64,000 nucleotides of DNA from an uncultured Gammaproteobacteria bacterium (GTDB lineage Bacteria > Patescibacteriota > Patescibacteriia > UBA1558 > S5-K13), in assembly GCA_964424195.1 (NCBI GenBank), contig CAYRHT010000001.1, forward strand, positions 135,260-199,259, read 5' to 3'. The notes under the pieces are model-generated. The model searched no databases. It saw only the letters and a list, made by a program, of their open reading frames with translations, and was not told the origin of the DNA. A program made the position numbers and the translations under genes. Shown here one piece after another: positions 4,048-63,243 of the stretch; position 1 is the stretch's first letter, and every line of letters starts with the position of its first letter.

Positions 4048-4052
4048 AAATT

Positions 4053-6257
4053 ATGTATAAAATAGCAGTATTACAATTTCCAGGAACTAATTGTGAATAT
4101 GAAGCTCAAAGAGCTGTAAATAACTCTGGAATGCAAGGAGAATTTTTTAGATGGAATCAAAATGCAGAAGAATTAGATAATTATGATGGCTATGTCGTGG
4201 CGGGAGGATTTTCTTACGAAGATCGATCCCGAGCTGGAATAATTGCTTCTTTAGATCCAATCATGAAAAAGATTAAAGAAGAGGCTGAAAAAGGAAAACC
4301 AATTATTGGAATTTGTAATGGTTGTCAGATCTTAATGGAAACTGGTTTAGTGCCTGGTTTAGAAAACAATGCTTTGGGTGGAGCTCTAGCTTTAAATACT
4401 AGAGCTCAAGATGGCAAAGTCATTGATACTGGATATTATAACGAGCAAATTTACATTAAAAACCAAACCGAGAATCGTTCTGCTTTTAATTTAGAAACAG
4501 ATAAAAATCATCACTTTAGATTACCAATTGCTCATGGAGAAGGAAGATTTGTTTTAGAAGAAGAATTATTAAAAGAATTACAGGAACATAATCAAATAGT
4601 TTTTAGATATTGTGATGCTCAAGGAGAAGTTAAAAATGAATATCCAGTAAATCCTAATGGTACTACTGATAATATTGCGGGAATTTGTAATAAAAGAGGA
4701 AATGTTTTAGCTTTAATGCCTCATCCTGAGAGAGTAGCAGAGGGACAATTTATTTTTGATTCAATGAAAAAATACATTGAAGATAATTCTAAACTTTCAG
4801 AAGCAGATTATAAATTAGAATATTCTCAGGAAATCAAAAAACCAGAAGCATATTCTAAGCCGGAGAATTCTACAGAACTATTAGTGGATATGATAATTAC
4901 TGATAATGAAGCTGTAACTGTAGAAAATGCTTTGAAACAATCCGGATTTGAAGGCGTAGAAATTAAAAAGAAAGTATATTGGAATGTTGAAGCAGATAAT
5001 CTAGATCTAGATGCTTTAGTTAAATCAGGGGAGTTATTAAATACTAATAAAGAGAATGTAATAGAGAAATTAGAAGATGGATATTTTAATCTTTTAGTAA
5101 TGTATAAGGGTGATGCTGAAGGCAAAGGAAAATTAGCTACTCTAAAAAATAAATTAGGGTTTGATAGTATTGAAGATGTTCAGAAAGGAATTTTGTGGCA
5201 AATCAAATGCAAGGAAGAGGATCTAGAGAAAATTTTAGCTACCAATATATTTTATAATCCTTTTTCACAAGATTATTTTAACTATAAATTCAAATATATG
5301 AACAAAGAAGAGATAATAAAAAACAATTTAAAAAATACTTTAACTGAAATTAATATTCCCGAGCTAGGAGAAAAGAAAATTGGTAAAGTTAGAGACACTT
5401 TTTTTAAAGATAAACAAATTATTTTAGTTACTACTGATCGACAGAGTGCTTTTGATAGAGTGTTAGCTGCTATTCCATTTAAGGGACAAGTTTTAAATCA
5501 AACATCAGCTTGGTGGTTTAAACAAGTCGAAGATATTATTCCAAATTCAGTTATCTCTACTCCTGATCCAAATGTAGTTATTCAAAAAAAATGCCAAGTA
5601 TTCCCTTTTGAAGTAATTGTGCGTGGTTATTTAACTGGTTCTACTTCAACTTCTGCTTGGACTAATTATGAAAAAGGAGTCCGAAATTTATGTGGTAATA
5701 AATTGCCAGACGATATGTGGAAGAATCAAAAATTTGAGAAGAATATTATTACTCCGAGTACTAAATTTGAAGAACATGATCGAAATATCACTCCAGACGA
5801 TATTATCAATGAAAATTTTGCCACCAGAGAAGAATGGAAGTACATTTCTCAGAAAGCTTTGGAAGTTTTTACCAGAGGACAAAAGATTGCTAAAGAACAT
5901 GGTTTAATTTTAGTAGATACCAAATATGAATTTGGTAGAGATGAGGAAGGAAATATCATGATTATTGATGAGATCCATACTCCTGATTCTTCTCGTTATT
6001 GGTTAGCTAATAATTATCAAGAAAATATTGATGAAGGAAAAGAACCAGATAATATTGATAAGGAATTTTTAAGATTATGGTTTAAAGAAAATTGTGATCC
6101 TTATCAGGATGAGAAATTACCACCAGCTCCAGATGAGTTAGTAATTGAACTTTCAAAGAGATATATTCAACTATATGAAATGATTACCGGAGAAGAGTTT
6201 AAATTTCCGGAAGGCGATGTTGAAGAAAGAATTAAAAATAATTTAAAAAATATATAG
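4053..6257 (+). CDS. purQSC: Fusion protein: PurQ glutaminase, two tandem PurS-like repeats, and PurC (SAICAR synthetase)
   Basis: N-terminus MYKIAVLQFPGTNCEYE is class I GATase PurQ. The middle has two segments of about 80 aa resembling PurS (ITDNEAVTVENALKQSGFEGVEI..., LKNKLGFDSIEDVQKGILWQIK). The C-terminus is PurC (ILVTTDRQSAFDRV, FEVIVRGYLTGS). Confidence 0.8.
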   Translation: MYKIAVLQFPGTNCEYEAQRAVNNSGMQGEFFRWNQNAEELDNYDGYVVAGGFSYEDRSRAGIIASLDPIMKKIKEEAEKGKPIIGICNGCQILMETGLVPGLENNALGGALALNTRAQDGKVIDTGYYNEQIYIKNQTENRSAFNLETDKNHHFRLPIAHGEGRFVLEEELLKELQEHNQIVFRYCDAQGEVKNEYPVNPNGTTDNIAGICNKRGNVLALMPHPERVAEGQFIFDSMKKYIEDNSKLSEADYKLEYSQEIKKPEAYSKPENSTELLVDMIITDNEAVTVENALKQSGFEGVEIKKKVYWNVEADNLDLDALVKSGELLNTNKENVIEKLEDGYFNLLVMYKGDAEGKGKLATLKNKLGFDSIEDVQKGILWQIKCKEEDLEKILATNIFYNPFSQDYFNYKFKYMNKEEIIKNNLKNTLTEINIPELGEKKIGKVRDTFFKDKQIILVTTDRQSAFDRVLAAIPFKGQVLNQTSAWWFKQVEDIIPNSVISTPDPNVVIQKKCQVFPFEVIVRGYLTGSTSTSAWTNYEKGVRNLCGNKLPDDMWKNQKFEKNIITPSTKFEEHDRNITPDDIINENFATREEWKYISQKALEVFTRGQKIAKEHGLILVDTKYEFGRDEEGNIMIIDEIHTPDSSRYWLANNYQENIDEGKEPDNIDKEFLRLWFKENCDPYQDEKLPPAPDELVIELSKRYIQLYEMITGEEFKFPEGDVEERIKNNLKNI

Positions 6258-6258
6258 T

Positions 6259-6756
6259 ATGGAAATTCTAGATGTTATTAATATAAAAGATGAGGTTATA
6301 GGAGAAGCTAGTAAGGATGAATGTCATCAAAGAGGATTAAGACATAGAAGTGTTTTTGTATTTATATTTGATAATAATGATAATTTAATTCTACAAAAAA
6401 GAAGTAGTAAAAAAAAGATAAGACCCAATAAAATAACAGCTTCCGCTTGTGGTCATGTAGTGAAAGGAGAGAATTATTTAAAAGCTGCTGAAAGAGAATT
6501 ATTAGAAGAGCTGGGCATTAAAACAAATCTAATAGAAGTTTTAAGAACAATCGGTCCTTATGATCAAGACAAAGAGAATATTGTTTTATATGAAGGTCAT
6601 TATGAAGGAGATTTAGATTTTAATAAAGAAGAAATAGCTGAAATTATCAAAATGAGTGTAAATGATATAAAGGATAAATTGGAAGAAAAAGTCTGGAATT
6701 TTGGTTCAAGTTTTAAAAAAGTATTTTTAGAATATATAAATAATAAAAATATATGA
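6259..6756 (+). CDS. Nudix hydrolase
   Basis: Nudix box GHVVKGENYLKAAERELLEELGI, matching Gx5Ex7REUxEExGU. Confidence 0.75.
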   Translation: MEILDVINIKDEVIGEASKDECHQRGLRHRSVFVFIFDNNDNLILQKRSSKKKIRPNKITASACGHVVKGENYLKAAERELLEELGIKTNLIEVLRTIGPYDQDKENIVLYEGHYEGDLDFNKEEIAEIIKMSVNDIKDKLEEKVWNFGSSFKKVFLEYINNKNI

Positions 6757-7142
6757 AAGCAATAATAATCATGGGATCAGAATCTGATAAAGATTTTGTC
6801 CAAAAAATTACAACAAAATTAAGTGAATTAAAAATTGAGTTTGAGGAGCATGTAGCTTCTGCTCATAAAAATCCTAAAGAAGTATTAGAGATTATTGAGA
6901 AAAATAATGAGTCCGATGATAAATTATGTTATATTACAGTTGCCGGAAGAAGTAATGCTTTGTCAGGTTTCACAGCTGCTAATGCTAAACACCCTGTCAT
7001 TGCTTGCCCTCCTTTGAAGGATAAAATGGATTATATGGTAAATATCCATTCTACTCTCCAAATGCCCTCAAAAGTGCCTGTAATGACTGTAATTGACCCA
7101 GGAAATGCAGCTTTAGCAGTAAGTAGAATCTTAAACTTATAA
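6753..7142 (+). CDS. purE: N5-CAIR mutase / PurE family protein (short)
   Basis: IIIMGSESD, SAHKNP and AGRSNALSG align to the PurE motifs IVMGSKSD, SAHRTP and GGAAHLPG. Confidence 0.8.
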   Translation: MKAIIIMGSESDKDFVQKITTKLSELKIEFEEHVASAHKNPKEVLEIIEKNNESDDKLCYITVAGRSNALSGFTAANAKHPVIACPPLKDKMDYMVNIHSTLQMPSKVPVMTVIDPGNAALAVSRILNL

Positions 7143-7146
7143 AAAT

Positions 7147-8472
7147 ATGGATTCATTAAATAGTATTTGTCCTTTAGATGGACGTTATCAAAAAGACCTG
7201 AAGATTCTTCAGGAGTATTTTTCAGAAAGCGCTTTAATTAATTATCGGGCCGAGGTAGAAAAGAAATATTTAATAGCTTTATTAAAATTATTAAAGAAAG
7301 CTAATGCTACTGAATTAAAGAAAATTGAAAATATTAAAATTGATTCAGCTAAAGTTAAAAAAATTGAGAGCATTACTAATCACGATGTTAAAGCAGTAGA
7401 GTATTATTTAAAAGAGGAGTTAAAGAAATTAAAATTTAGTGATGATATTTTAGAGCTAGTACATTTTGCTTTAACTTCTGAGGATATAAATAATTTAGCT
7501 TATTCTTTAATGTTTAAAGACGCTTTAGAAAAAGCCTATCTTCCAGAATTAAATAAGACTATTAAAGAATTGAAAAAGCTAGCTCAGAAGCATAAAGCTC
7601 AGACAATTTTAAGCATGACCCACGGACAGCCAGCTACTCCAACAACACTTGGAAAAGAAATGGCTGTTTTTGTTTATCGTTTAAATAGACAATTAAAGTT
7701 TTCTCCTTTGCTAGGAAAATTAGCAGGAGCTACTTCTAATTGGGCTGCTCATTATGTCGCTTATCCAAAGATTGATTGGTTTAAATTTAGTGAAAAATTT
7801 GTGAAGTCTCTCGGCTTAGAATTAAATCCTTTAACTATCCAAATTGAATCACATGATAGTTTAGCTGAGAATCATCAGCAAGTTATTAGAATAAATAATA
7901 TTCTTAAAGATTTTTCTCGAGATATGTGGCTATATATCTCCCGAGGGATTTTTAAACAAAAGGTGGTTAAGGGTGAAGTTGGTTCCTCAACTATGCCTCA
8001 TAAAGTAAATCCAATTAGATTTGAAAATGCGGAAGGTAATCTCGGAATGAGTAATGCTATCTTTGATTTTATGGCTAATAAATTACCAATTTCTCGAATG
8101 CAAAGAGATCTTTCTGATTCTACAGTATTAAGAAACCAAGGTTTAGCTTTAGGATATAGTTTTTTAGCTCTACAGAATTTAGTCAAAGGTCTAGCTCGAG
8201 TAGAAGCTAATAGTATAAAGATCAAAGAGGAATTAGATAATAATTGGGAAGTTTTAGCTGAACCAATTCAAACTGTATTAAGAAAATTAGGATATTCTGG
8301 AGCCTATGAAAAATTAAAGGAATTAACTAGAGGTAAAAAATTAAATCAAGAAATCCTAACTGAGTTTATTGATGACTTGAAGATACCTCAAGAAGAAAAA
8401 GAACAATTGAAAAAATTAACACCATTTAATTATAATGGTATTTCATCTAAATTAATTAAATATATTAAATAA
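7147..8472 (+). CDS. purB: Adenylosuccinate lyase
   Basis: N-terminus CPLDGRYQKDL is PurB-like. Fumarase/lyase family signature near GSSTMPHKVNP. Confidence 0.9.
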   Translation: MDSLNSICPLDGRYQKDLKILQEYFSESALINYRAEVEKKYLIALLKLLKKANATELKKIENIKIDSAKVKKIESITNHDVKAVEYYLKEELKKLKFSDDILELVHFALTSEDINNLAYSLMFKDALEKAYLPELNKTIKELKKLAQKHKAQTILSMTHGQPATPTTLGKEMAVFVYRLNRQLKFSPLLGKLAGATSNWAAHYVAYPKIDWFKFSEKFVKSLGLELNPLTIQIESHDSLAENHQQVIRINNILKDFSRDMWLYISRGIFKQKVVKGEVGSSTMPHKVNPIRFENAEGNLGMSNAIFDFMANKLPISRMQRDLSDSTVLRNQGLALGYSFLALQNLVKGLARVEANSIKIKEELDNNWEVLAEPIQTVLRKLGYSGAYEKLKELTRGKKLNQEILTEFIDDLKIPQEEKEQLKKLTPFNYNGISSKLIKYIK

Positions 8473-8476
8473 TATT

Positions 8477-9955
8477 ATGTGTGGAGTGGTCGGAATATTT
8501 GGTAATCAAGAAACCAGAGTAAGTTTAGAGCTTTATGATTCTTTAATTGCTTTACAGCATCGAGGACAAGATTCAGCTGGGATTATAACTCTCAATGATG
8601 GTTTTCATTTACATAAGAAATTAGGATTAGTTCGTAATGTTTTTAATGAAGAAGTTCTTTCTCGTTTAAGAGGTAATATGGGAATTGGACATGTCCGTTA
8701 TTCAACAGTTGGTGATGGGACTGCAAATGATGCTCAACCATTTTTAGCTAGTTCTCCCTATGGAATAGCTATAGCTCATAATGGTAATGTAACTAATTTT
8801 GAAAAACTTAAGAAAGAATTAGCTGAAAAAGATTTACGACAAACTAATTCTGGTTGTGATGTAGAAATAATTTTGAATGTTTTTGCTAGTGCTTTAGCGA
8901 AACAAAAAGAGGGAGATTTTAAAGAGCAAGTTTTTAAAGCAGTAGCAGAAGTTCACCAAAGAGTTCAAGGGAGCTATTCAGTAGTAGTAATCATTGCTGG
9001 TAAAGGAATGGTAGCTTTTCGAGATCCTTTAGGAATTAAACCTCTGGTAATTGGTAAACGAGGAGAAGAATATATATTTGCTTCAGAGAATGTAATGTTT
9101 ACTACATTAGGATTTGAATATCAGGGAGATGTCCAAGCTGGTGAATGTATTTTTCTTGATCAAGAGAGTAAATTACATCGGAAGTTAATTACTAAAAAAA
9201 CTCATTGTCCTTGTATTTTTGAACATGTTTATTTCGCTCGACCAGATGCATTGATTGATAATGTTAGTGTTTACAAATCTCGTTTACGAATGGGTAATAA
9301 ATTATCAGAAAAGATTAAACCTTTGATGGATGAATTAAAAATAGATGTAGTAGTCCCAGTTCCTAGTACTTCTACTACCACAGCTTTAACTTTAGCCTAT
9401 GACTTAGGAGTTAAATACCGAGAAGGATTAATGAAAAATCATTTTATTGGTCGAACATTTATTATGGAGAGTCAAGAAAAAAGAAAAAAGTCAGTTCGTT
9501 ACAAACTATCTCCCGTAGAATTAGAAATTAAAGACAAGAATGTTTTATTATTAGATGATAGTATTGTTCGAGGAAATACTTCTAAAGAAATAGTGAGACT
9601 TCTGAAAGAATGTGGAGCTAAAAAAGTATATTTTGCTGTAGCTGCTCCACCAATTAAATTTCCTTGTGTCTATGGAATTGATATGCCAACTCGACAAGAA
9701 TTAATTGCTCATAATAAAGAGAGTATGGAAGAAATTAGAAAAGAGATTGGAGCTGACTTTTTAATATATCAAGAACTTGATGATTTAGTTGATTGTGTTC
9801 ATGAGGGTAATCCGGAAGTTAGAGAATATTGTACAGCTTGTTTCTCTGGAAAGTATCCAACTAATATTTCAGCAGAAGAGTTGTTAGAACTAGAAGAAGA
9901 GAGACTGGTAGTTCGGAAGAAACAAAAAGAACAACAAATGAAAATATTTAAATAA
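8477..9955 (+). CDS. purF: Amidophosphoribosyltransferase
   Basis: N-terminal MCGVVGIFG Ntn-amidotransferase start, followed by a PRTase domain. Confidence 0.92.
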   Translation: MCGVVGIFGNQETRVSLELYDSLIALQHRGQDSAGIITLNDGFHLHKKLGLVRNVFNEEVLSRLRGNMGIGHVRYSTVGDGTANDAQPFLASSPYGIAIAHNGNVTNFEKLKKELAEKDLRQTNSGCDVEIILNVFASALAKQKEGDFKEQVFKAVAEVHQRVQGSYSVVVIIAGKGMVAFRDPLGIKPLVIGKRGEEYIFASENVMFTTLGFEYQGDVQAGECIFLDQESKLHRKLITKKTHCPCIFEHVYFARPDALIDNVSVYKSRLRMGNKLSEKIKPLMDELKIDVVVPVPSTSTTTALTLAYDLGVKYREGLMKNHFIGRTFIMESQEKRKKSVRYKLSPVELEIKDKNVLLLDDSIVRGNTSKEIVRLLKECGAKKVYFAVAAPPIKFPCVYGIDMPTRQELIAHNKESMEEIRKEIGADFLIYQELDDLVDCVHEGNPEVREYCTACFSGKYPTNISAEELLELEEERLVVRKKQKEQQMKIFK

Positions 9956-9959
9956 AATT

Positions 9960-51899: not shown

Positions 51900-52979
51900 T
51901 TGAAGATTATGGAAAAAGATAAATTAACAACTAGATTAAATTTTAGAAAATTAGAGGATGCTCAAAAAATTCAACGTTTGTTAGCGGAAATTGATGAATT
52001 TAAGGGTCGATGGATCGCAGGAATGAAATTATCTCCGCAGATTTTGAATAAATTAAAAAGATCGGTAATTATTACTTCTACTGGGTCTAGTACTCGAATT
52101 GAGGGAGTAGAGCTTAGTGATGAAGAGATTGAAAAATTATTTAAAGGTTTAAAGATTAAAAAATTTAATACTAGAGATGAACAAGAAGTAGCTGGTTATA
52201 AAGAGCTTTTGGAAAACGTTTTTAATTCTTATTTAAATATAAAATTTAATGAGAGTTTAATTAAAAGTTTTCATAAAGAATTATTAAAATATTCTGAAAA
52301 AGATAAGTATCATTTAGGGAAGTATAAATTTGATAATAATCAAGTAGAAGCTCTTGATTTAAAGGGCAAGGTAATTGGCATTGTTTTTGATCCAAGCCCA
52401 CCACATTTAACCTCTAAAGAGATGAATGAGTTGATTGAATGGACTCAAACTGCTTTACAAAAGAATTTAATTCACCCTTTGCTAGTAATTGGAAATTTCA
52501 TTTTGGAATTTTTAGCAATTCATCCTTTTCAAGATGGTAATGGTCGAACTTCAAGAATTCTGACTAATTTTTTGATGCTTAAATTAGGATATGAATATAT
52601 GCCTTATGTTTCGCATGAAAAATTTATAGAGGATAATAAAACAGATTATTATTTAGCCCTTCGAAAAAGTCAGGGGAATTGGAAAAAACGAAGTAAAGAT
52701 ATTGCCCCGTGGATGATTTTCTTTTTAAATATTGTCTTAGAACAAGCTCAAATGGCAATTACTATTAGTGATAATGAGAAAATAGAATTTTTGTTATCAG
52801 AGAAGCAGTTGTTAGTTTGGGAATATTTTCAAGAGCATGAGTATTTAAGTCCAAAAGATATTAGAGATAATTTGAATATCAAAGAGTCAACTGTGTTGCA
52901 GATATTAAATAAATTATTAAATATGAAGAAAATTGAACGTTTAGGAATGGGTAGAGGTGTGAGATATAAGAAAACTTAA
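51900..52979 (+). CDS. Fic family protein (class II, with N-terminal inhibitory motif)
   Basis: Fic motif HPFQDGNGRTSRIL. N-terminal STRIEG matches the (S/T)xxxE(G/N) inhibitory helix. C-terminal winged-helix-like domain. Confidence 0.85.
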   Translation: MKIMEKDKLTTRLNFRKLEDAQKIQRLLAEIDEFKGRWIAGMKLSPQILNKLKRSVIITSTGSSTRIEGVELSDEEIEKLFKGLKIKKFNTRDEQEVAGYKELLENVFNSYLNIKFNESLIKSFHKELLKYSEKDKYHLGKYKFDNNQVEALDLKGKVIGIVFDPSPPHLTSKEMNELIEWTQTALQKNLIHPLLVIGNFILEFLAIHPFQDGNGRTSRILTNFLMLKLGYEYMPYVSHEKFIEDNKTDYYLALRKSQGNWKKRSKDIAPWMIFFLNIVLEQAQMAITISDNEKIEFLLSEKQLLVWEYFQEHEYLSPKDIRDNLNIKESTVLQILNKLLNMKKIERLGMGRGVRYKKT

Positions 52980-53098: not shown

Positions 53099-54208
53099 AT
53101 GCCAGATATTAAAATAAAAAGTGATCTTGGTAATTTTTCTGATATTAATGATGAAATTATTATCAAAGATGATGATGATTTTCAAGTTTTTTCCCAAGGA
53201 AATTTATCAGATTTAGATATTTCTAAATTAGAAGAAAAGAAAAAGTTTTCAGAATCTAAAGAAGTCCTAGATACAGGTAAGGAAGAAATAAATTTAGCTC
53301 CACCAGCTCCAGTTGTTTGGGATAAAAAATCTAGCTTTTATTTCGATATTCAAGATGAAGATGATATTGCTCAGGAGGTCAAGAAGATAGCAAAGATGGA
53401 GAAAGAATCTCCAGAATCTACAAAGAGCAAGGAATTAAAAAAATACAGTTTAACTAAGATATTAAAAAAACTTTTAGAGAATTATAATTTAAATTTACTA
53501 CCAGATTTAGAAAAAAGATTGAGTAATATTGTTCTGTCTTTTTTAAAACATACTAGAAATAGAGTAGATGCTTTGAATTTGTTTAAGGCTCCGATTAATC
53601 AATCTGGTTTAGCCATCGATAGTGAGTTAGCAGGTAAATTAATTGATTTATTAGATAATATTAGGACTAAAGTTGATGAAGTCGGAGGAAGTATTATTGA
53701 GGATCAAAAGGATGTAAAAAATAATAATCAAGTTCAAAATAACCAACGGGTAGAAAACTTAGCTAATATTGATCCGCGACAAAAGATTAAAGTTGAAGAA
53801 AAAGGAATAGAAATACCAATGATTCAAAGGAATTCTTCAGTTGGAGACAAGCCTATAGTTACAGGTATTAAAAAGAAGGAAAGAGTAGTTGGTCCAATGG
53901 ATGAATTTTCAGAAATTACTTTAATAAATTTTAGACGTTTATCCAACGACCCTACTGAAGCAGCTCAGAAAATTATGGATAGAATTAGATCTTTAGAAAA
54001 AGAATCATATATCAAGAGAGCGACAGCTATTCAGAACTGGAGAAAGAGCGAGGTTTATAAACTTTATTTAGATTTAGGTAGAGAAAGTATGGAAAAAAAT
54101 CTATCAATAGATAAAATTATTGAACAAAAGATTTTAAATAAAGAAAAAGTTTTGAAGATGAAAGAGTTTAGTGCTGTTACAGATTTAAATAAAAAATTAA
54201 GGTTTTAA
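53099..54208 (+). CDS. Hypothetical protein (first gene of the T4SS-like cluster)
   Basis: 369 aa, acidic, no TM helix and no recognised domain. Confidence 0.45.
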   Translation: MPDIKIKSDLGNFSDINDEIIIKDDDDFQVFSQGNLSDLDISKLEEKKKFSESKEVLDTGKEEINLAPPAPVVWDKKSSFYFDIQDEDDIAQEVKKIAKMEKESPESTKSKELKKYSLTKILKKLLENYNLNLLPDLEKRLSNIVLSFLKHTRNRVDALNLFKAPINQSGLAIDSELAGKLIDLLDNIRTKVDEVGGSIIEDQKDVKNNNQVQNNQRVENLANIDPRQKIKVEEKGIEIPMIQRNSSVGDKPIVTGIKKKERVVGPMDEFSEITLINFRRLSNDPTEAAQKIMDRIRSLEKESYIKRATAIQNWRKSEVYKLYLDLGRESMEKNLSIDKIIEQKILNKEKVLKMKEFSAVTDLNKKLRF

Positions 54209-54210
54209 AT

Positions 54211-54669
54211 ATGCGTTATATTGTTCCTCAATTTATTGATGTCGAAGATAAAATATTTGGTCCAGTTACGGTTCGACAGTTTTTAATTTTAACAGTTGGC
54301 GGGCTTTTTATATTCATCTCCTTTAAATTATCTGATTTTTCCTTATTTGTTTTTTTAACTGTTATCATCGCTGGTTTAGCAGTGGTAATTGCCTTTGTTA
54401 AGGTGAATGGTAAAAAATTTCATGTCTTTTTCCTAGATATGTTAAATTTTCTTTTTAAAACTCCTAAATTATCTATTTGGCAAAAAAAAGAAAACACTAT
54501 TAAAACCATAGAGATAAAAGAAAAGGAAATAATAGATGATTATTACTTTAATCCCAAAGATTTACCACGAACAAAGTTGTCAGAAATATCTTTAGTAGTT
54601 GATACTGGTGGAGCATATATTGGTGAAGATAATAATGACTCATTAATAGGACAAAAATATGAAAAATAA
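54211..54669 (+). CDS. PrgI-like / VirB3-like small membrane protein
   Basis: 152 aa. N-terminal MRYIVPQFIDVEDKIFGPVTVRQFL followed by two TM helices, immediately upstream of a VirB4-like ATPase. Confidence 0.55.
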   Translation: MRYIVPQFIDVEDKIFGPVTVRQFLILTVGGLFIFISFKLSDFSLFVFLTVIIAGLAVVIAFVKVNGKKFHVFFLDMLNFLFKTPKLSIWQKKENTIKTIEIKEKEIIDDYYFNPKDLPRTKLSEISLVVDTGGAYIGEDNNDSLIGQKYEK

Positions 54670-55330
54670 AAAGAGAAAAACAAATAGTGCTGCTCAAGAA
54701 ATTTTAGAAATTTCTAGTATTCAGGATAATATGGTGATTTTGAAAAATGGTACTGTCCGAGCAGTGTTAATGGTTTCATCTATTAATTTTGCTTTAAAAA
54801 ATCAAGACGAGCAAGAAGGTATTATTGGAGCTTTTTATTCTTTCTTAAATTCGATTGATTATCCTTTACAAATAGTTATTCAATCAAGAGCCTTAGACAT
54901 TGATCAGTATTTAGATAAATTAGATAAATTAGGAAAACAGCAAACTAATGAATTACTAAGAATGCAAACTACTGATTATACCCAGTTTATTAGAGAGCTT
55001 CTACAATTACAATCAATTATGAGTAAGAAGTTTTTTGTAGTCGTCCCTTATTCAGTCGTAGAAGTTAAAAAGAAAAGTTTTTTCACTCAAGCTTCTGATC
55101 TATTTACAGCTCAGAAAGTATTGAAAATTAGGAAGAAAGAATATGAAGAATACAAGGATCAATTATTTAGAAGAGTTGGTCATGTTCGTTCAGGTTTAGA
55201 AGGTATGGGATTGCAATCAGCACCATTGGATACTTCAAGTCTAATAGAACTTTATTATAATTCATATAACCCAGAAACTTCCAAAAGAGAGAAGTTAAAG
55301 GATATTAAAAAAGTTAGAATTGATGAGTAA
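54659..55330 (+). CDS. Hypothetical T4SS-associated protein
   Basis: 223 aa, translationally coupled (11-nt overlap) between the PrgI-like and VirB4-like genes. Confidence 0.4.
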   Translation: MKNKKRKTNSAAQEILEISSIQDNMVILKNGTVRAVLMVSSINFALKNQDEQEGIIGAFYSFLNSIDYPLQIVIQSRALDIDQYLDKLDKLGKQQTNELLRMQTTDYTQFIRELLQLQSIMSKKFFVVVPYSVVEVKKKSFFTQASDLFTAQKVLKIRKKEYEEYKDQLFRRVGHVRSGLEGMGLQSAPLDTSSLIELYYNSYNPETSKREKLKDIKKVRIDE

Positions 55331-55365
55331 GATTATTAATTTATTTGTAAAATAATAATTCTAAG

Positions 55366-57234
55366 ATGTTTAAACAAAAACAAATTCAAGAAACAAATAA
55401 TGCTTCTGAACAGGATTCACAAGTTTCAACACAGAATAATGTTCAAGATAAGCGTTTTTTAGAAGCTGAAAAAGTATATCGAAGAGGTAAGACTTCTGTT
55501 AAAGATTTAATTGCTCCAGCTGCTTTTAAAGTAGAAAGTAGTTTTCTTCGGATTGGTGATAAATATGTTAGTACTATTTATGTTATAACTTATCCTCGAT
55601 ATATTAGTATTGGATGGTTTGCTCCAGTTATTAATTATTCTATTCCTTTGGATGTTGCTATGTATTACTATCCTTTACCTTCAGAAAAGATTTTAAAAAA
55701 GTTAAGAAACAAAGTTGGTTCTTTGGAAGCTCAATTACATGGTGATGCTGAAAAAGGTGCTCCTCGTGATCCCCAAAGACAAACTGCCTTACAAGATATT
55801 GAAGAATTAAGAGATAATTTGACTCAAGGTACAGAGAAATTTTTTCAATTTGCTTTGTATATAACTATTTATGCTAATGATCCAGAAGAATTAGAAAAAA
55901 GAGTTGAAAATGTTGAAAATATTTTTGGTTCAAAATTAATTTTTACTAAGAGAGCATTATTTACTTCTAAAGAAGGATTTAATTCAACTTTACCACTAGG
56001 TAATGACGAATTATACATTGCCAACAATATGAATTCATCCCCGGCTTCTGCCTCTTTCCCTTTTATCTCTTCCGAATTAACTAGTGATGATGGTATTTTG
56101 TATGGAATTAATCGACATAATAATTCTCTGATACTTTTTGATAGATTTTCTTTACAAAATGCTAATGCTGTTGTTTTTGCTACTTCTGGTGCTGGTAAAT
56201 CCTACGCTATTAAGTTAGAAGTAATTCGAAGTTTAATGATGGGTACAGAGGTTATTATAATTGATCCGGAAAAAGAATATCAACATTTATCAGAAGCAGT
56301 AGGAGGAACATATATTAATCTTTCTCTAAATTCTAATTCTAAAGTTAATCCTTTCGATTTACCTAAGGGTTTAAGTAAAGAGATGAAGGCGGCTGATGTT
56401 TTAAGAAGTGCTGTAATTACTTTAAAAGGATTAATTCGTTTAATGGTCGGTAAATTATCTCATTTGGAAGATTCTTTAGTTGATCGAGCGCTTTTAGAAA
56501 CTTATGCTAAAAAAGATATTACAGCAGATAGTGATTTAGATGATGTAGAAGCTCCTTTGATGGCAGATTTTGAAGAAGTTTTAAATGGAATGGAAGGTGG
56601 AGGAGACTTAGCTCAAAGAATTAAAAAATATACTGAAGGAACTTTTGCAGGACTTTTTAATAGTCCTACTAATGTTGATGTTACTAATCAATTAATTACT
56701 TTTAGTGTTCGAGATTTAGAAGATGAATTAAGACCAATCGCTATTTATACCATTATTACCTATATTTGGAATTTAGTTAGATCTCAAGTTAAGAAGAGAA
56801 TCTTAATTATTGATGAGGCTTGGTGGTTAATGCAACATGAAGATAGTGCTAAGTTTATCTATGCTTTAGTAAAAAGATGTCGAAAATACTATTTAGGAGT
56901 AACTACTATTACTCAGGATGTTAATGACTTTTTAAGATCACCATATGGTCAAGCTATTGTTACTAATTCTTCTTTACAATTATTGTTAAAACAGTCTCCA
57001 GCAGCTATTGATCTAATTCAAAAGACTTTTATGCTGACTGATGAAGAAAAATATTTACTATTACAAGGTAAAGTTGGACAAGGAATTTTCTTTGCTGGAA
57101 ACAAGCATGTCGCAATTCAAATTGAAGCATCATATACTGAAGATCAATTAATTACCTCTGATCCAAAACAACTTTTAGAAATTGAAGAAGCTAAGAGAGA
57201 GTTTAAAGACAAACAAGTAAAAGAAAATTCTTAA
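55366..57234 (+). CDS. VirB4/TrsE/PrgJ-like conjugation ATPase
   Basis: Walker A ATSGAGKSY, Walker B ILIIDEAWWLM. N-terminal IAPAAFKVESSFLRIGDKYVSTIYVITYP typical of Gram-positive VirB4 homologues. Confidence 0.8.
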   Translation: MFKQKQIQETNNASEQDSQVSTQNNVQDKRFLEAEKVYRRGKTSVKDLIAPAAFKVESSFLRIGDKYVSTIYVITYPRYISIGWFAPVINYSIPLDVAMYYYPLPSEKILKKLRNKVGSLEAQLHGDAEKGAPRDPQRQTALQDIEELRDNLTQGTEKFFQFALYITIYANDPEELEKRVENVENIFGSKLIFTKRALFTSKEGFNSTLPLGNDELYIANNMNSSPASASFPFISSELTSDDGILYGINRHNNSLILFDRFSLQNANAVVFATSGAGKSYAIKLEVIRSLMMGTEVIIIDPEKEYQHLSEAVGGTYINLSLNSNSKVNPFDLPKGLSKEMKAADVLRSAVITLKGLIRLMVGKLSHLEDSLVDRALLETYAKKDITADSDLDDVEAPLMADFEEVLNGMEGGGDLAQRIKKYTEGTFAGLFNSPTNVDVTNQLITFSVRDLEDELRPIAIYTIITYIWNLVRSQVKKRILIIDEAWWLMQHEDSAKFIYALVKRCRKYYLGVTTITQDVNDFLRSPYGQAIVTNSSLQLLLKQSPAAIDLIQKTFMLTDEEKYLLLQGKVGQGIFFAGNKHVAIQIEASYTEDQLITSDPKQLLEIEEAKREFKDKQVKENS

Positions 57235-57253
57235 ATTAATAATATATAAATAT

Positions 57254-57835
57254 ATGGATAAGAAACAAATTAAAATATTAATTATTACCTTTATAGCAGT
57301 ACTTTTAATAGTCTTTGTAGTGTTTTTACTAGTTAATATTGGAGATAAAGTAAATAATTCTCAATCAGAAATAAATTCAGTTGATAATACTTTAAAAGAG
57401 GAGAAAAAAGATTCAGAGCTTATTAAAGAAGTAATTGCTGAAAAGAGTGCAGAAGAATTATCAGAAATGAAGATCAAAAGTGTTGCTAAAAATTTTACAG
57501 AAAGATATGGTACTTGGTCATCAGATAATCAAGCTAATAATTTTAAATCAACTAAAGTATATACCACTTCAAGAATGGAGAATATTATTAAGGACTTTGT
57601 AGAAAATGATGAAAGATTAGCTAATGATTATCCAGATTATTATGGAATCACTACTAAAGCTTTGAATGTTAAGATTATAGATTCCAATGAATCTAGTGCT
57701 AATCTATTAGTTTCTGTTCAACAAACAGAGACTTTAGGAGATGTTTCAGGAGAAGATACTAGTTATAGTAGTTTAAGTTTGGAATTGATAGAATATAATG
57801 GAGATTGGTTTGTTAATTATGCAGAGTGGGAATAG
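57254..57835 (+). CDS. Membrane-anchored protein, possibly VirB8-like (NTF2-like fold)
   Basis: N-terminal TM helix followed by a soluble domain of about 150 aa. Assignment is tentative. Confidence 0.35.
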   Translation: MDKKQIKILIITFIAVLLIVFVVFLLVNIGDKVNNSQSEINSVDNTLKEEKKDSELIKEVIAEKSAEELSEMKIKSVAKNFTERYGTWSSDNQANNFKSTKVYTTSRMENIIKDFVENDERLANDYPDYYGITTKALNVKIIDSNESSANLLVSVQQTETLGDVSGEDTSYSSLSLELIEYNGDWFVNYAEWE

Positions 57836-57850
57836 ATTAATTTAAAAAAT

Positions 57851-58897
57851 ATGCCAGAAGATCAGAAAGAAATAGAATTAAAGCCAGGAGAAACTAAAGA
57901 AATTAAAATTGATATTCCTTTAGCAGTTCAAGGTGATGATAAGCCAGAAGTAAAACCTAAAGAAGATTCAGAAGTCAGAAACCAACAACCAGAAAATCAA
58001 GAAGAAGATCAAAATTTAAAGAATGATGAAGAAAATAATCAAGAAGAAAGACCAGGACTAAGTGATGTTGGTCAGATGAATCAGAGATCAGAGAGAAGAC
58101 ATTATCCTCAAACTGAAAAAATGGATAATCTAGATAAGCCAAAGCAAAATGATAAAAAACGAGATTCAAAAGAAAATGGAGATGAAAGAAGTTTAAGGGA
58201 TAGGTGGAGAGATGCTCAAGCCAAGAAACAAAATAAAGATAGAGAAAATGTAAGAAAGAATGCTAAAGATAAATCTAATTCAAATTTAGGAGATAAAATG
58301 ACAGAGTTAGCAGGTAAAGCAGGAGATAAGCTTTTACCGAAATCTAGGATTCCAGAGAGAGGAAAGGGAATGCCAAGAGATAAATCAGATGTTATTGATA
58401 GTGATTATGGTGGTCCAAGTAAAAAAGAAGATTTAATGTCTAGTTGGAATAAGTTAAGGAATTCAGTTAGAAATAAAAAAGATCAGAATGATATTAAGGA
58501 AAAGAGAAGTGGAACTGGTCAAATTATTAATAAAGGAAGTAGATTGGCTAGTTATGAATTTTATAGATTATGTTGGCTAAATTTAATAGATAGTTTTGGT
58601 TTAACATATCTTGGATTATTGTTCTTATTTGTAGCTAAATATGTCGCTGGTAGTAGTAAGGTTATAAAATTTGTTAGTATTAAAGATACTTCAGCTCGTT
58701 TAGATGTAATTCATAATAAAGAGAAAACAGACATACTATCAATGATTACCTTTGTTGCCCTGACTATGGCCATTGTAGCATTAATTATCTTAGCCATATT
58801 CTTGATAATACTAATATTAGTAGCCTTAGGAGTAATTAAAATTGAAGGTCTTAGTAGATTAGAGGCTATTATAGAGATTATTAAAAAAATATTTTAA
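57851..58897 (+). CDS. Hypothetical membrane protein with charged low-complexity N-region and C-terminal TM helices (possibly VirB6-like)
   Basis: K/E/D/N-rich first 230 aa. Three hydrophobic helices at the C-terminus. Confidence 0.4.
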   Translation: MPEDQKEIELKPGETKEIKIDIPLAVQGDDKPEVKPKEDSEVRNQQPENQEEDQNLKNDEENNQEERPGLSDVGQMNQRSERRHYPQTEKMDNLDKPKQNDKKRDSKENGDERSLRDRWRDAQAKKQNKDRENVRKNAKDKSNSNLGDKMTELAGKAGDKLLPKSRIPERGKGMPRDKSDVIDSDYGGPSKKEDLMSSWNKLRNSVRNKKDQNDIKEKRSGTGQIINKGSRLASYEFYRLCWLNLIDSFGLTYLGLLFLFVAKYVAGSSKVIKFVSIKDTSARLDVIHNKEKTDILSMITFVALTMAIVALIILAIFLIILILVALGVIKIEGLSRLEAIIEIIKKIF

Positions 58898-58909
58898 TAA
58901 ATTAAATAT

Positions 58910-60184
58910 ATGTCAAAATTTAGGAAAATAGCATTAATCATTTTATTTATTCTAGTAATTACAATAGTTAGTATTTTATTGTATAGAATATTCTTTAAAA
59001 CAGCAGATCCTGTTATTGTTACGGATCCTAGTGGTATTGAAGGCGGAGGTTTGCCAGCTATTAATGAAGGAGATGTTTCAGTGAGGGGATTAGAAGGAGA
59101 TATTGTTACGGATCCAATAGATGCGGAAGATATTTTTGTAGAACAAGAAGGAGTTGATAATATTGCTCAAGGAGGATTTACAAACTCTAAAGAATTAGTT
59201 GCTAAAAATATTAAATCCCCAGATTTTAGTAAGATTAATAATGGTTTAGTCTATTATGATCGAGAGAATCAAGGATTTTATCGAGTTAATGATGATGGTA
59301 GTGTTTTTAAAATGTCAGAGAATAAATTCTATTCAGTAGTTGATGTTGTTTGGTCTCCAACTAAAAACCAAGCTTTAATAGAATATCCAGAAGATGATAA
59401 TGTGGTTTATAATAAAGTTTTGTATGATTTTGATAAAGATAGAGCAATAACTAGCTTCCAGAAAGAGATGAAAGATTTTAACTTTTCTAATAATGGAGAA
59501 AAGATATCAGCTAAATGGATAGGTGATTATGAAGATCATAATTATATAGTTAGTTCTGATATTCATGGTAATAATTTTAAATTTGTAGAACCAATTGGTA
59601 GTAAGAGAAAAGATGTTCAAACAGTTTGGAGTCCAGATTCTGAAATCCTAGCTACTTATCGAGAATCTGTTGATGCTAATCGACAGGAAGTGTATTTTAT
59701 AAATGAAAATAATAAGAATCTTAGTTCTTTAATAGTTGATGGTCGAGGTTTTGAAGTTGCTTGGAACCCCAAGGGGGACAAGATTTTATATAGTGTTTTT
59801 AAAGCTCAAACTGATTACAACCCCACTTTATGGATAGCTAGTGGACAAGGAAATGGTCTGGGAGGCGGTAAAAGATATGTTGGTTTAAATACTTGGGTTG
59901 ATAAATGTGATTTTAGTCAAAATAATGGTGACATAGTATATTGTGCAGTACCAGATTATTTACCTAAAGGCAGTGGTTGGTATCCAGAACTAGCTAAAGA
60001 TGTCCCTTATCATATATATCAAGTAGATATTAGTACTGGTCGAAAACAAAAAGTTGCTGACCCAGTTGTTAATGGTTCAAGAGTTAATATTGATCAAATA
60101 TATTTAGGGGAGAATGATCAAACACTATATTATACTAATGGAGCAGATGGTCATTTATATAGTATAAATTTAGCAACAGAATAA
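58910..60184 (+). CDS. Membrane-anchored TolB-like (PD40/WD40-like) beta-propeller protein
   Basis: N-terminal TM helix. Repeated VWSP...K-type PD40 segments (VVWSPTKNQ, VWSPDSEILA, VAWNPKGDKILYS). Confidence 0.6.
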   Translation: MSKFRKIALIILFILVITIVSILLYRIFFKTADPVIVTDPSGIEGGGLPAINEGDVSVRGLEGDIVTDPIDAEDIFVEQEGVDNIAQGGFTNSKELVAKNIKSPDFSKINNGLVYYDRENQGFYRVNDDGSVFKMSENKFYSVVDVVWSPTKNQALIEYPEDDNVVYNKVLYDFDKDRAITSFQKEMKDFNFSNNGEKISAKWIGDYEDHNYIVSSDIHGNNFKFVEPIGSKRKDVQTVWSPDSEILATYRESVDANRQEVYFINENNKNLSSLIVDGRGFEVAWNPKGDKILYSVFKAQTDYNPTLWIASGQGNGLGGGKRYVGLNTWVDKCDFSQNNGDIVYCAVPDYLPKGSGWYPELAKDVPYHIYQVDISTGRKQKVADPVVNGSRVNIDQIYLGENDQTLYYTNGADGHLYSINLATE

Positions 60185-60188
60185 TATT

Positions 60189-60851
60189 ATGCCAGAACAA
60201 AAAGATAAATTATTTTCTTCATTAATGATTATATTAATCTTAGTTGTTTTAGCTTTTTTAGTATATAATTTTGTTTGGGATATAAATATTTTTAAAACTA
60301 AAAATAATGAAACTGTAATCCAGAGCAAAACAGAAGGATATTTACTTTCTTCTTTACCAAACGACCCAGTTAAAGGAGAAGGATTATCAACTATTGCTAT
60401 TTATTTATTTACTGATTATGAAGCTAATCAAATGAATGAAATTATGAAGATAGTTAATGATTTAATAAAGAAATATCCTAATGATGTTCATTTAGTTTGG
60501 AAGGATTTACCAGTTTCTAAACATTATTTCTCTCGAGGAGCAGCTTTAGCAGCTCGTTGCTCTCTAGATGATCAGAAGTATTGGGAATATAATGAAAAAT
60601 TATTAAATAGAAAAAAGTCTTTATCTTTAGAATTGTATCAAGAAATAGCTAGTGACTTAGGAATGGATTCAGTAAGCTTCTTAGCTTGTTATAAGTCAGG
60701 TAAATATCTATCTGATATAGATAATAATATTAGGGAAGCTTATGTTTTAGATGTTGATGATGTTCCTAGTATTTTTCTAAATCAAGAGCAATTGAAGGGG
60801 GAGATTAGTTTTGAAAAATTAGATAAGATGGTTAGTAATTTAGTAAAATAA
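60189..60851 (+). CDS. DsbA/BdbD-like thioredoxin-fold protein lacking the CxxC active site, membrane-anchored
   Basis: N-terminal TM helix. DsbA-like pattern (VWKDLPVS...GAALAARCSLDDQKYWEYNEKLL...GTP-like DVPSIFLN), but the CxxC position reads FTDYEANQ. Confidence 0.5.
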   Translation: MPEQKDKLFSSLMIILILVVLAFLVYNFVWDINIFKTKNNETVIQSKTEGYLLSSLPNDPVKGEGLSTIAIYLFTDYEANQMNEIMKIVNDLIKKYPNDVHLVWKDLPVSKHYFSRGAALAARCSLDDQKYWEYNEKLLNRKKSLSLELYQEIASDLGMDSVSFLACYKSGKYLSDIDNNIREAYVLDVDDVPSIFLNQEQLKGEISFEKLDKMVSNLVK

Positions 60852-60928: not shown

Positions 60929-62125
60929 ATGCTTTATTCAAGAGAAATTTTTGAACAAGCTAAAAAATTATTATTAAAAGATGAATGTATTATCTTAACA
61001 GGAGCTAGGCAAACTGGTAAGACTTCTATTTTAATAATGTTGAAAAATTTTTTAGAAATAAAAAAAAATCAACCTTGTTTCTATTTTAATTTAGAAAATC
61101 AGGATTATTTGAAATTATTAAATAAACATCCTTATAATATTTTTGAATTAATTCCTAATAGTAAAGTTAAACAAACTATTATTATTGATGAAATTCAATA
61201 TTTAGATGATCCAACTAATTTTTTAAAATTACTTTATGATGAAAAAAGGGATCAAGTAAAAATTATTGCTTCGGGTTCTTCGTCTTTTTACATTGATAAG
61301 AAATTCAAAGATAGTTTGGTAGGACGAAAAGTATTATTAGAAGTGTATCCTCTTAATTTTACAGAATTTTTAGTTTTTAATGATGAAGATGATTTAATAA
61401 AGCAGAAAAGTAAAACATTGTCAGTTTATTATAAAAACAAATTAAAGAAATTATGGGATAAATATTTAATTTATGGTGGTTATCCTAAGGTTGTTTTAGA
61501 GGGTAAAAATAATGCTCAGATAGTAATTTTGCAAGATATTGTTTCTTCTTATATTAAAAAAGATATTCGGGATGCTGGTATTAAGAATACAGATAAATAT
61601 TTTGCTCTTTTAAAAATATTAGCTAGTCAAACGGGTGAATTAGTAAATTCTCAAGAGTTAGCTAATACATTAAATATGGCTCACAAGACAGTAGAGGAAT
61701 ATTTATATGTTATGAAAAAGTCTTATCAAGTTGCTTTTATTCGACCTTTTTACAGAAATGCTAGAAAAGAGTTAAGTAAGATGCCTAAGGTATATTTTTA
61801 TGATTTAGGTTTTAGAAATTTATTACTTAATGATTTTGATTTTTTAGATAAAAGACAAGATAAGGGAGCTTATTTAGAAAATGTTATTTTTAAAGAATTT
61901 TTAAGACAGTTTGGAAATATTAATTTGATTAATTTTTGGCGCACTCAAGACAAGAAAGAAGTTGATTTTGTAATTGATAGTAAAGAAGCTTTTGAAGTTA
62001 AGTTTGTTGCATCTCAGATTAAGAAAAAGAAGTATGAAGCATTTAAAAATTTCTATCCTAATATTAAATTAAGTTTTTTAGAATATTCTAAAGTTTTAGA
62101 AAAGTTTTACAAATGGAAATTATAA
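60929..62125 (+). CDS. AAA family ATPase (AAA_14 + DUF4143 type)
   Basis: Walker A GARQTGKTS, Walker B IIIDEIQY. C-terminal DUF4143-like region. Confidence 0.7.
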   Translation: MLYSREIFEQAKKLLLKDECIILTGARQTGKTSILIMLKNFLEIKKNQPCFYFNLENQDYLKLLNKHPYNIFELIPNSKVKQTIIIDEIQYLDDPTNFLKLLYDEKRDQVKIIASGSSSFYIDKKFKDSLVGRKVLLEVYPLNFTEFLVFNDEDDLIKQKSKTLSVYYKNKLKKLWDKYLIYGGYPKVVLEGKNNAQIVILQDIVSSYIKKDIRDAGIKNTDKYFALLKILASQTGELVNSQELANTLNMAHKTVEEYLYVMKKSYQVAFIRPFYRNARKELSKMPKVYFYDLGFRNLLLNDFDFLDKRQDKGAYLENVIFKEFLRQFGNINLINFWRTQDKKEVDFVIDSKEAFEVKFVASQIKKKKYEAFKNFYPNIKLSFLEYSKVLEKFYKWKL

Positions 62126-62142
62126 ATTTTAACCATAATAAG

Positions 62143-63243
62143 ATGAATAAAAAAATAATTAAAGTCATATTAGTATCCTTAGTTCTAGTCTTTATTTTTA
62201 ATATTAACTTTGCATTAGCTGAAAATCCTTTTGGAGAACCTTGTTCAACTAAATCATTCACTGATCTTAAAGGTGCTATTTGTTATGAACCAGAGATTGC
62301 TATTCCTGGATTACCAAGTTCTTTTGAAGTTGAATCTAATACTTTAGGTTTATATATTAAAATCTGGTATGAATATTTACTTTATGTAGCTGGAGTCCTA
62401 GCTGTAATTGTAGTTATGGTTGGTGGATTTCAATGGATTACTGCTGGAGGAAATCAGAGTAAGATTGGTGAAGCTAAAGAGAGGATTATTAGTGCAATTA
62501 TTGGTTTATTTTTAGCTCTAGGTTCTTATTTATTACTTTATACTATTAATCCTGAATTAGTTAAAATACATGATTTAAATATGCCGGATATAGAGCCAAT
62601 CAATATCTATTGCGAAGATGTCAGTAAATTAAGAAAGGTTGGGGATACAGGAGAATACACAATTGATGGTTCAGAAACTGAATGTGGTGAATATTATGAA
62701 TATGTGGTGGATGAATCTATTTTTAAGTGTCGAGGAAGGAGTTGTTTTAAAGAAGGTGCTAGTTATGTTTGTAAAATTGATAAATGTGTAAATGAGTCAG
62801 TTTCTTATAATCATCCCTGTGATGATAATAAAGATTCTGATTGTATACCACCTAATGTTTGTAAATCATATGCAGCTAGACAGGACGGAGGAACTGGTTT
62901 ATGTGGTCTTAGATCTGGTCAAGATGGTTATTGCTCTGAGGATTTAGATTGTGTAGAAGATTATTCATGTATAAGTTCAAGATGTAAACATGATGTGTCT
63001 GGATTGTGCGAAGGTTTGAGTCCGGGAGATACTTGTGTTAATAGTGAAGAAAATGGTTATTGTAATAATCAATTAGCTTGTTTTGCATGTGCTAGTGTTG
63101 GTGATAATTGTGGTTCACCACATGGTCCACAATATGTTTGTCCCAATCCACAGGGTATTTGTGGAAGTAATAATGGAGGAGATTATTGTGATAGTTGGTC
63201 TAATTTATGTACAGAAAATGATAATCCTGGTTTACTTCATTAA
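62143..63243 (+). CDS. TrbC/VirB2-like pilin fused to a cysteine-rich extracellular domain (about 190 aa)
   Basis: Signal peptide MNKKIIKVILVSLVLVFIFNINFALA. Pilin-like core with two TM helices (LAVIVVMVGGFQWITAGGNQSKIGEAKERIISAIIGLFLALGSYLLLYTINPEL). C-terminal domain with more than 30 Cys in CxxxC/CxC-rich arrangements. The ORF track starts at 62113; the internal Met at 62143 was chosen. Confidence 0.55.
   Translation: MNKKIIKVILVSLVLVFIFNINFALAENPFGEPCSTKSFTDLKGAICYEPEIAIPGLPSSFEVESNTLGLYIKIWYEYLLYVAGVLAVIVVMVGGFQWITAGGNQSKIGEAKERIISAIIGLFLALGSYLLLYTINPELVKIHDLNMPDIEPINIYCEDVSKLRKVGDTGEYTIDGSETECGEYYEYVVDESIFKCRGRSCFKEGASYVCKIDKCVNESVSYNHPCDDNKDSDCIPPNVCKSYAARQDGGTGLCGLRSGQDGYCSEDLDCVEDYSCISSRCKHDVSGLCEGLSPGDTCVNSEENGYCNNQLACFACASVGDNCGSPHGPQYVCPNPQGICGSNNGGDYCDSWSNLCTENDNPGLLH

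Follow-up and report, generated by a model that had tools for sequence, protein, structure and literature searches.

We show here that the C-terminal tail of a type IV secretion system (T4SS) pilin, encoded by an uncultured Patescibacterium, is swapped as a cassette with sharp breakpoints, and this polymorphism is the main new result of our analysis. The gene lies at 62143..63243 on the forward strand of the 64,000-nucleotide (nt) stretch under study (hereafter the window), closes a chromosomal T4SS operon, and joins a segment homologous to VirB2-like pilins to a cysteine-rich region in what proves to be a genuine fusion. A first-pass annotation, made from the letters of the window, had described it as a pilin-like protein fused to a cysteine-rich extracellular domain and as a candidate tip for host attachment. 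The features of the gene and of its 366-amino-acid (aa) product, including its transmembrane (TM) helices and the regions for which structure models gave a predicted local distance difference test score (pLDDT), are as follows.

62143..63243, + strand: whole gene, VirB2-like T4SS pilin with cysteine-rich ectodomain (open reading frame list, two assemblies, PF18895)
62143..62220, + strand: predicted Sec signal peptide, aa 1-26, ending before 62221, with a KK n-region, a hydrophobic core and an ALA/EN motif (inspection, hydropathy)
62221..62331, + strand: short N-terminal ectodomain, aa 27-63, which holds the conserved cysteines C34 and C47 and an E-I-x-IPG motif (alignment A1)
62332..62562, + strand: pilin core, aa 64-140, comprising helix, TM1, basic loop, TM2 and the end motif LYTINPELV (PF18895, hhalign, hydropathy)
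62563..62610, + strand: conserved linker, aa 141-156, KIHDLNMPDIEPINIY (alignment A1; low pLDDT in both models)
62611..62787, + strand: cysteine module A, aa 157-215, beta-hairpin-rich, common to most cassette types (pLDDT 82-89; alignment A1)
62788..63006, + strand: cysteine module B, aa 216-288, an inserted segment that contains two motifs of the CxxDxDC type (alignment A1; low model confidence)
63007..63210, + strand: cysteine module C, aa 289-356, with ten conserved cysteines (invariant cysteine columns; pLDDT 76-86)
62613..63239, + strand: replaceable cassette (blastn breakpoints; no DNA similarity to the L003 orthologue, both flanks at 77-80%)

Cassette replacement of the pilin tail

Comparison of the window with the syntenic locus L003 delimits the exchanged segment. 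The proteins around the pilin are highly similar between the two (91.5% identity for VirB4, 84.6% for the AI-2E transporter and 87.8% for cysteinyl-tRNA synthetase, CysRS), and the pilins themselves are 65% identical over aa 1-205, with the TM core at about 95% and the remainder unalignable. At the DNA level, 77% similarity ends at about nt 470 of the gene and is back, at 80%, 5 nt before the stop codon. The same breakpoint pattern is seen between loci L023 and L024, and between L011 and L013 (93% identity for AI-2E, 90% for the N-terminal part of the pilin, 35% for its C-terminal part) DNA similarity is lost from nt ~511 to ~80 nt beyond the stop codon. Across pairs, similarity breaks off around codons 157-170 and is regained at the stop codon or close to it, with flanking genes and pilin core 80-93% identical between relatives.

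Clustering of the distal parts separates at least eight unrelated types among the cysteine-rich pilins, and these types are distributed independently of lineage: the 'WSGE...GW.GE' type occurs in three lineages of the N-terminal part, and close relatives differ in type. Within a single metagenome, Ga0307992, four contigs whose flanks are 80-91% and whose pilin 5' halves are 83-88% identical carry four different cassettes. A search with all known tails found no silent or orphan cassettes in the window.

Pilin core, fusion and cysteine-rich tail

The reading frame is uninterrupted from 62143 to its stop, according to the open reading frame list and its translation. Its start (MNKK at 62143) is backed by homologues and by two gene callers; an upstream in-frame ATG at 62113 (62113-62142, MEIINFNHNK...) overlaps the stop codon of the preceding AAA gene. 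As judged by eye and from hydropathy, the signal peptide is of Sec type and would be cleaved between MNKKIIKVILVSLVLVFIFNINFALA and EN. Hydropathy peaks at residues 8-26, 78-96 and 115-133, and the two hydrophobic helices, about 76-97 and about 115-135, lie either side of a basic loop, TAGGNQSKIGEAKER, whose basic residues are K107, K112 and R114, the latter two invariant in alignment A1. The core as a whole is almost invariant in the same alignment (GGFQW..GGNQSKIGEAKER), and most homologues likewise have two cysteines in the N-terminal part.

Profile comparison agrees with the first-pass annotation that the N-terminal region is pilin-like. The Pfam family PF18895 (T4SS_pilin) matches the whole protein at 36.3 bits and the core alone at 40.5 bits, relative to a gathering cut-off of 26.6, and is matched by all 23 relatives of the core. 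The TrbC/VirB2 family PF04956 remains below threshold here (17.3 bits vs a cut-off of 27.9, E = 0.0055); 18 of the 23 relatives match it at E <= 1, and one, P0045, exceeds its cut-off. When the core profile (A3) was compared by hhalign with a profile (A4) of genuine VirB2/TrbC genes from six MPF_T plasmids, where VirB1 and VirB3 lie on either side of them, the two were collinear over 65 columns spanning both helices (71% probability, E = 3.7e-5), scores of a kind that TM helices can inflate. A PDB sequence search with the whole-protein profile A1 returned no solved structure for the pilin, only chance connexin matches. By these sequence comparisons, the N-terminal part is a VirB2-like T4SS pilin.

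The protein departs from its family in length. All 118 ordinary PF18895 members matched in a profile search measure 94-161 aa, and the short members stop 3-30 aa (median 16) past the LYTINPxL motif, which is present in 65 of the 118 short pilins; since the motif is shared and the short members end soon after it, the C-terminus would be a free, variable end. Normal pilins are short, as the first-pass annotation assumed, and a 226-aa tail is hence exceptional: family members are typically small (about 100-160 aa) and end in a short tail, whereas this protein has 366 aa and resembles them in its profile match, its signal peptide, two helices, basic loop and LYTINPxL motif, and its VirB4/PrgI locus.

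This unusual size was the sole basis for suspecting that a frameshift or a chimeric assembly had joined two genes near 62560. We found no sign of such a join: a 96-kb JGI contig and a separately assembled ENA contig carry the gene without a single base difference, and GC content at third codon positions is uniform along it (0.114 in the N-terminal part, 0.123 in the C-terminal part). The orthologues, furthermore, are equally fused. A first homologue search returned 46 relatives, nearly all of them 290-450 aa long and bearing additional domains after or around the pilin core; four of them (P0002, P0005, P0007 and P0011) are full-length homologues at 42-53% identity, and the fused architecture is kept in ~45 proteins from many samples. 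The same architecture is seen in ~15 positional orthologues, in every one of which the genes run from the T4SS operon through the DsbA-like gene and the pilin to the AI-2E transporter. Its conservation across many orthologues establishes the fusion as genuine, as first annotated, and the artefact explanation is effectively refuted, with a residual probability that we consider negligible.

The cysteines number 26 in total, and not more than 30 as initially counted: two of them, C34 and C47, belong to the N-terminal ectodomain, and the other 24 are spread over residues 157-356. The region that follows the pilin core extends over 226 aa and its cysteine-containing stretch over ~200 aa, in place of the domain of about 190 aa first described. 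Twenty-four cysteines in 226 residues represent a marked enrichment relative to the 0.70% found in 43 other window proteins (binomial p = 8e-21). The spacings comprise C-x4-C, C-x5-C and a single C-x2-C, CxC is absent, and no regular internal repeat was found; the cysteine-rich C-terminal region and the C-x5-C spacing of the earlier description are thus borne out, and its CxC and repeated arrangement are not. In 20 of 21 homologues the tail has an even number of cysteines (p = 1e-5), a parity that fits complete disulfide pairing outside the cell and suggests some 12 disulfides.

Module A is 54% identical to P0003 over 61 aa. Module B occurs only here and in P0002 and appears in alignment A1 as an insertion relative to P0005, P0007, P0011 and P0013, and module C is common to P0002, P0005, P0007, P0011, P0013 and P0047. 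AlphaFold2 predicted the whole protein at a pLDDT of 56 and the tail alone at 67, the latter as small beta-hairpin modules with module B below 40. Searches with the tail gave nothing in Pfam at E <= 0.1 and nothing among PDB sequences at E <= 10, and its model has no significant fold match, a 21-24-residue match to squash knottin inhibitors being non-significant (E > 2); membership of the knottin, EGF or granulin families, to which the first-pass annotation had likened the domain, is consequently not upheld. A phmmer search of 1.84 billion representative proteins returned five matches to the tail, three of which are full-length pilin fusions and two (P0047 and P0048) apparent fragments that begin within the pilin core, so that no occurrence of the tail domain independent of pilins was found in that set. 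A profile search with the tail alignment A2 returned only three known members.

The T4SS operon and its neighbours

The genes that precede the pilin, identified as indicated, are the following.

53099..60184, + strand: rest of the T4SS operon (Pfam, NCBIfam, TM scan; order kept in L003 and L014)
before PrgI, + strand: 369-aa protein, first gene of the operon (operon order)
54211-54669, + strand: PrgI/VirB3-like protein (Pfam/NCBIfam)
54659-55330, + strand: TraC-like protein (Pfam/NCBIfam)
55366-57234, + strand: VirB4, CD1110 family, 363.6 bits (Pfam/NCBIfam)
after VirB4, + strand: 193-aa bitopic protein (TM scan)
57851-58897, + strand: 348-aa protein (operon order)
before the DsbA-like gene, + strand: 424-aa anchored beta-propeller-like protein (operon order)
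60189..60851, + strand: membrane-anchored thioredoxin-fold (DsbA-like) protein without CxxC (Pfam Thioredoxin_4/DSBA; synteny)

The pilin closes this operon on the same strand as VirB4, 4.9 kb downstream of VirB4 and also downstream of PrgI, and is followed on its 3' side by the AI-2E transporter, TP_methylase and CysRS. The gene order is repeated in L003, L004, L011, L013, L014/15 and L023-L030 (at least 12 loci). A hidden Markov model of the core detected no further pilin-core genes in the window or within +/-10 kb of the syntenic loci. After the pilin tail, the fastest-evolving products are the 348-aa and 193-aa proteins, at 55-57% identity to L003 vs 92% for VirB4; in the 348-aa protein, a long N-terminal half of low complexity, highly charged and rich in K/E/D/N/Q, is combined with TM segments at the C-terminal end.

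The DsbA-like gene lies directly upstream of the pilin in all syntenic loci, apart from an AAA gene inserted between them in the window. The first-pass annotation had proposed that both of these neighbours service the cysteine-rich domain. The CxxC motif is absent from the window's DsbA-like protein and from four orthologues (L003 9325-9987, L004 1640-2302, L013 848-1510 and L014 9304-9996), the Pfam match beginning past the active-site region of the profile; in all five, LF-x-DYE-A/S replaces CxxC and two other cysteines are conserved. Without a CxxC the protein is not a conventional oxidase, and its candidacy as the oxidase of the tail is ruled out. For comparison, 92% of MdbA-like proteins from the Candidate Phyla Radiation (CPR) retain CxxC, and CPR bacteria generally have MdbA/VKOR-type oxidation systems (bioRxiv 10.1101/335083).

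The AAA gene itself, an AAA_14/DUF4143 ATPase at 60929-62125 with 23% GC, is missing from the syntenic loci L003, L013 and L014, as is a Fic/DOC gene at 51900-52979; both are therefore insertions into or beside the T4SS operon, the AAA gene a lineage-specific one, neither is retained as part of the system, and the suggested role of the AAA protein falls with its absence from those loci. Another DUF4143 ATPase is found in Magasanikbacteria (L005 3118-4335), directly after a pilin-SLT fusion gene, and the site may be an insertion hot spot, or the gene may be of a mobile or defence type. Downstream of the window on the same contig (L001 15874-16519), a Gp49/HTH gene pair (HigBA-like toxin-antitoxin) separates TatD from RmuC, an insertion by comparison with L003.

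The window is otherwise ordinary chromosomal Patescibacterium DNA (ParAB, GyrA, RuvB, queuosine genes, purine pathway and aminoacyl-tRNA synthetases) with 29.5% GC. The nearest named genome is a Candidatus Komeilibacteria metagenome-assembled genome, in which the 424-aa neighbour protein is 78% identical. Positions 842-17578 of the window hold an apparently complete de novo purine cluster (PurL, PurM, a PurQ-PurC fusion, PurE, PurB, PurF, PurD, PurN, PurH and GuaA), of note since nucleotide synthesis is usually said to be missing from this phylum.

Proposed display of the tail, its alternatives and related systems

The reading that we favour, with a confidence somewhat short of even, is that a Komeilibacteria-like Patescibacterium encodes here a VirB2-type pilin belonging to a chromosomal T4SS of monoderm type, and that this pilin displays a swappable host-recognition head. 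The protein would be exported by Sec and lose its signal peptide, leaving a membrane hairpin whose two ends face outward and whose basic loop faces inward, a topology read from the sequence. The T4SS would then take it as a pilin, with the 226-aa tail exposed at the surface of the cell or pilus: the tail follows TM2, the basic loop lies between the two helices, and since the C-terminus of VirB2-type pilins faces outward, the tail would be shown outside, in line with the extracellular location first proposed for the cysteine-rich domain. There it would fold, as the even cysteine counts suggest, into a domain locked by ~12 disulfides and serve as a host-recognition (adhesin) module, and recombination between co-occurring strains would replace the head cassette and thereby alter or broaden the range of host surfaces that the T4SS of the epibiont can engage. 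A role in host recognition is favoured because the C-terminus would be outside, the head is probably disulfide-locked, and it is the sole strongly variable part of a conserved and probably essential machine. Strain-level replacement of the cassette thus fits the host-attachment function put forward in the first-pass annotation; as with surface display and polymerisation, binding of a host by the pilin or its head is something that we infer.

Several points weigh against this reading. From the geometry of the F pilus, we estimate that each subunit offers ~660 A^2 of surface for a head of ~1100 A^2 in cross-section, and heads of ~24 kDa would be crowded; they would have to stand clear of the shaft by ~30 A, a distance that the 16-aa linker would permit. 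The structure models are of medium confidence only (the pLDDT values of 56 and 67 given above), and fold comparison found the head to be unlike any known adhesin fold. No oxidase was found in the window, and the adjacent thioredoxin-fold protein is unable to oxidise cysteines. Finally, short pilins that form the shaft might lie elsewhere in the genome, as the scan for pilin cores covered the window and flanks.

The strongest competitor, clearly less probable in our view yet to be taken seriously, holds that the hairpin never polymerises in this monoderm and acts as a membrane anchor or docking module that sets the ectodomain beside the T4SS channel; the head would be a cell-bound adhesin reaching through the wall, or the protein a minor, nucleating or tip pilin on a shaft of short pilins encoded elsewhere. 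Other Patescibacteria have the same core fused to would-be anchored enzymes (SLT, VanY, Peptidase_M15_4, M23 and 3D), Magasanikbacteria loci pair one long fusion pilin with arrays of ~10 short pilins, and the T4SSs of Gram-positive bacteria normally have no pilus (PMC12102498, PMC12857230). A 24-kDa head on each subunit would also carry a steric cost. In this lineage, however, no short pilin is encoded in the operon or within 64 kb, and the extreme conservation of the core suggests more constraint than a simple anchor needs.

Cleavage of the tail after export appears unlikely. It would free a soluble, variable, disulfide-rich effector, inhibitor or signal and leave the core as an ordinary short pilin, and a conserved, apparently unstructured linker, KIHDLNMPDIEPI, does lie exactly between core and head. 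C-terminal processing is, moreover, an established feature of TrbC/VirB2 proteins, RP4 TrbC having its C-terminus trimmed before cyclisation, and the weak local fold matches of the tail (E > 2, not significant) are to knottin protease inhibitors. Yet no protease gene is conserved in the operon, and the short members of the family retain tails that differ in length and look unprocessed; the present data do not distinguish processing from surface display. Far less probable still is a polymorphic toxin, in which a conserved N-terminal trafficking module would deliver variable C-terminal toxin cassettes against competitors or hosts: the conserved N-terminal part, replaceable C-terminal part and sharp recombination boundaries would suit it, but an immunity-like gene is missing (in every locus the pilin is followed by the conserved AI-2E transporter, and DNA similarity is back at the stop codon), and there is no toxin or enzyme domain in Pfam and no orphan cassette in the window.

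Known systems share individual properties with the displayed, swappable head that we favour. VirB2 of Ti, TrbC of RP4 and TraA of F (PF04956) have in common with the present protein the hairpin with both termini outside and the association with VirB3 and VirB4; they differ in that PF04956 scores below its cut-off here, the loop is 7 residues longer and the host is monoderm. Classical pilins are 70-120 aa when mature, and VirB2 and TrbC are cyclised head to tail, which is incompatible with a retained 226-aa tail. TraN of F-type systems is a cysteine-rich mating-pair stabilisation adhesin whose allelic tips set recipient specificity. Like this pilin, TraN is T4SS-encoded, very cysteine-rich and surface-exposed (presumably so here), and each has a variable region that is believed to mediate partner-cell recognition. 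Unlike it, TraN resides in the outer membrane as a protein distinct from the pilin; in the present case the pilin polypeptide itself includes the variable head, and it has no sequence relationship to TraN and no TraN Pfam match. The cysteines of the F system and TraF/TrbB have been noted (PMC7555446), and TraF, a pilus-assembly factor of the F plasmid with a CxxC-less thioredoxin fold (PMC7555446), is the closest parallel to the CxxC-less DsbA-like neighbour. Type IV pilus pilins and phage receptor-binding proteins show a like pattern, a conserved assembly part joined to a hypervariable distal one that recombination exchanges at sharply defined borders, but their folds and machinery are unrelated, and no silent cassettes were found nearby in the present case.

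The nearest relatives are the VirB2-like pilins of Patescibacteria (PF18895), which are widespread in the phylum; in Southlakia epibionticum, the pilin array and the T4SS are essential for epibiotic growth (PMC12102498, PMC10633639, PMC12857230). These pilins, for example those of the array of S. epibionticum ML1, belong to the same family, have a signal peptide, a two-helix hairpin and LYTINPxL, and likewise accompany VirB4 and PrgI of a chromosomal MPF_FATA-like T4SS with no relaxase nearby (PMC12102498, PMC10633639). Those described are small, often in arrays of 2-11 paralogues, and diverged throughout (average 25% identity; PMC12102498), whereas here a single gene has a near-invariant core and variation concentrated in the 226-aa, probably disulfide-rich C-terminal domain. 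In the literature searched, a non-exhaustive set that includes the accessible portions of PMC10633639, PMC12102498 and PMC12857230, we found no description of C-terminal domain fusions, cassette polymorphism or cysteine-rich pilins in CPR.

The same pilin core is also fused to peptidoglycan hydrolases in other Patescibacteria: P0030, P0033 and P0040 (VanY), P0041 (Peptidase_M15_4), P0042 (M23), P0034 (3D), and P0035 and L005 1603-3027 (SLT), often with an extra N-terminal cysteine-rich domain. In Magasanikbacteria, ~10 tandem short PF18895 genes (L005 7042-12247, L006 4384-9826) lie a few kb downstream of one long pilin fusion. Most Patescibacteria genomes with VirB2 lack VirB1, as reported in PMC12102498, and the pilin-hydrolase fusions may fill the VirB1 role that is reportedly vacant in most T4SS loci of the phylum.

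More broadly, and as a tentative proposal that is more doubtful than not, every subunit of the T4SS filament or channel would carry its own receptor-binding head, host range would be set by recombinational head swapping, and the hairpin of PF18895 would serve as a modular platform placing adhesins and hydrolases (SLT, VanY, M15, M23 and 3D) at the contact between epibiont and host and taking the roles of VirB1 and VirB5, both apparently missing from such systems. In the one species tested, the T4SS is essential for epibiotic growth (PMC10633639). With an almost invariant assembly core and a large, putatively extracellular head exchanged between co-existing strains, the pilin head described here is a concrete candidate determinant of host specificity.

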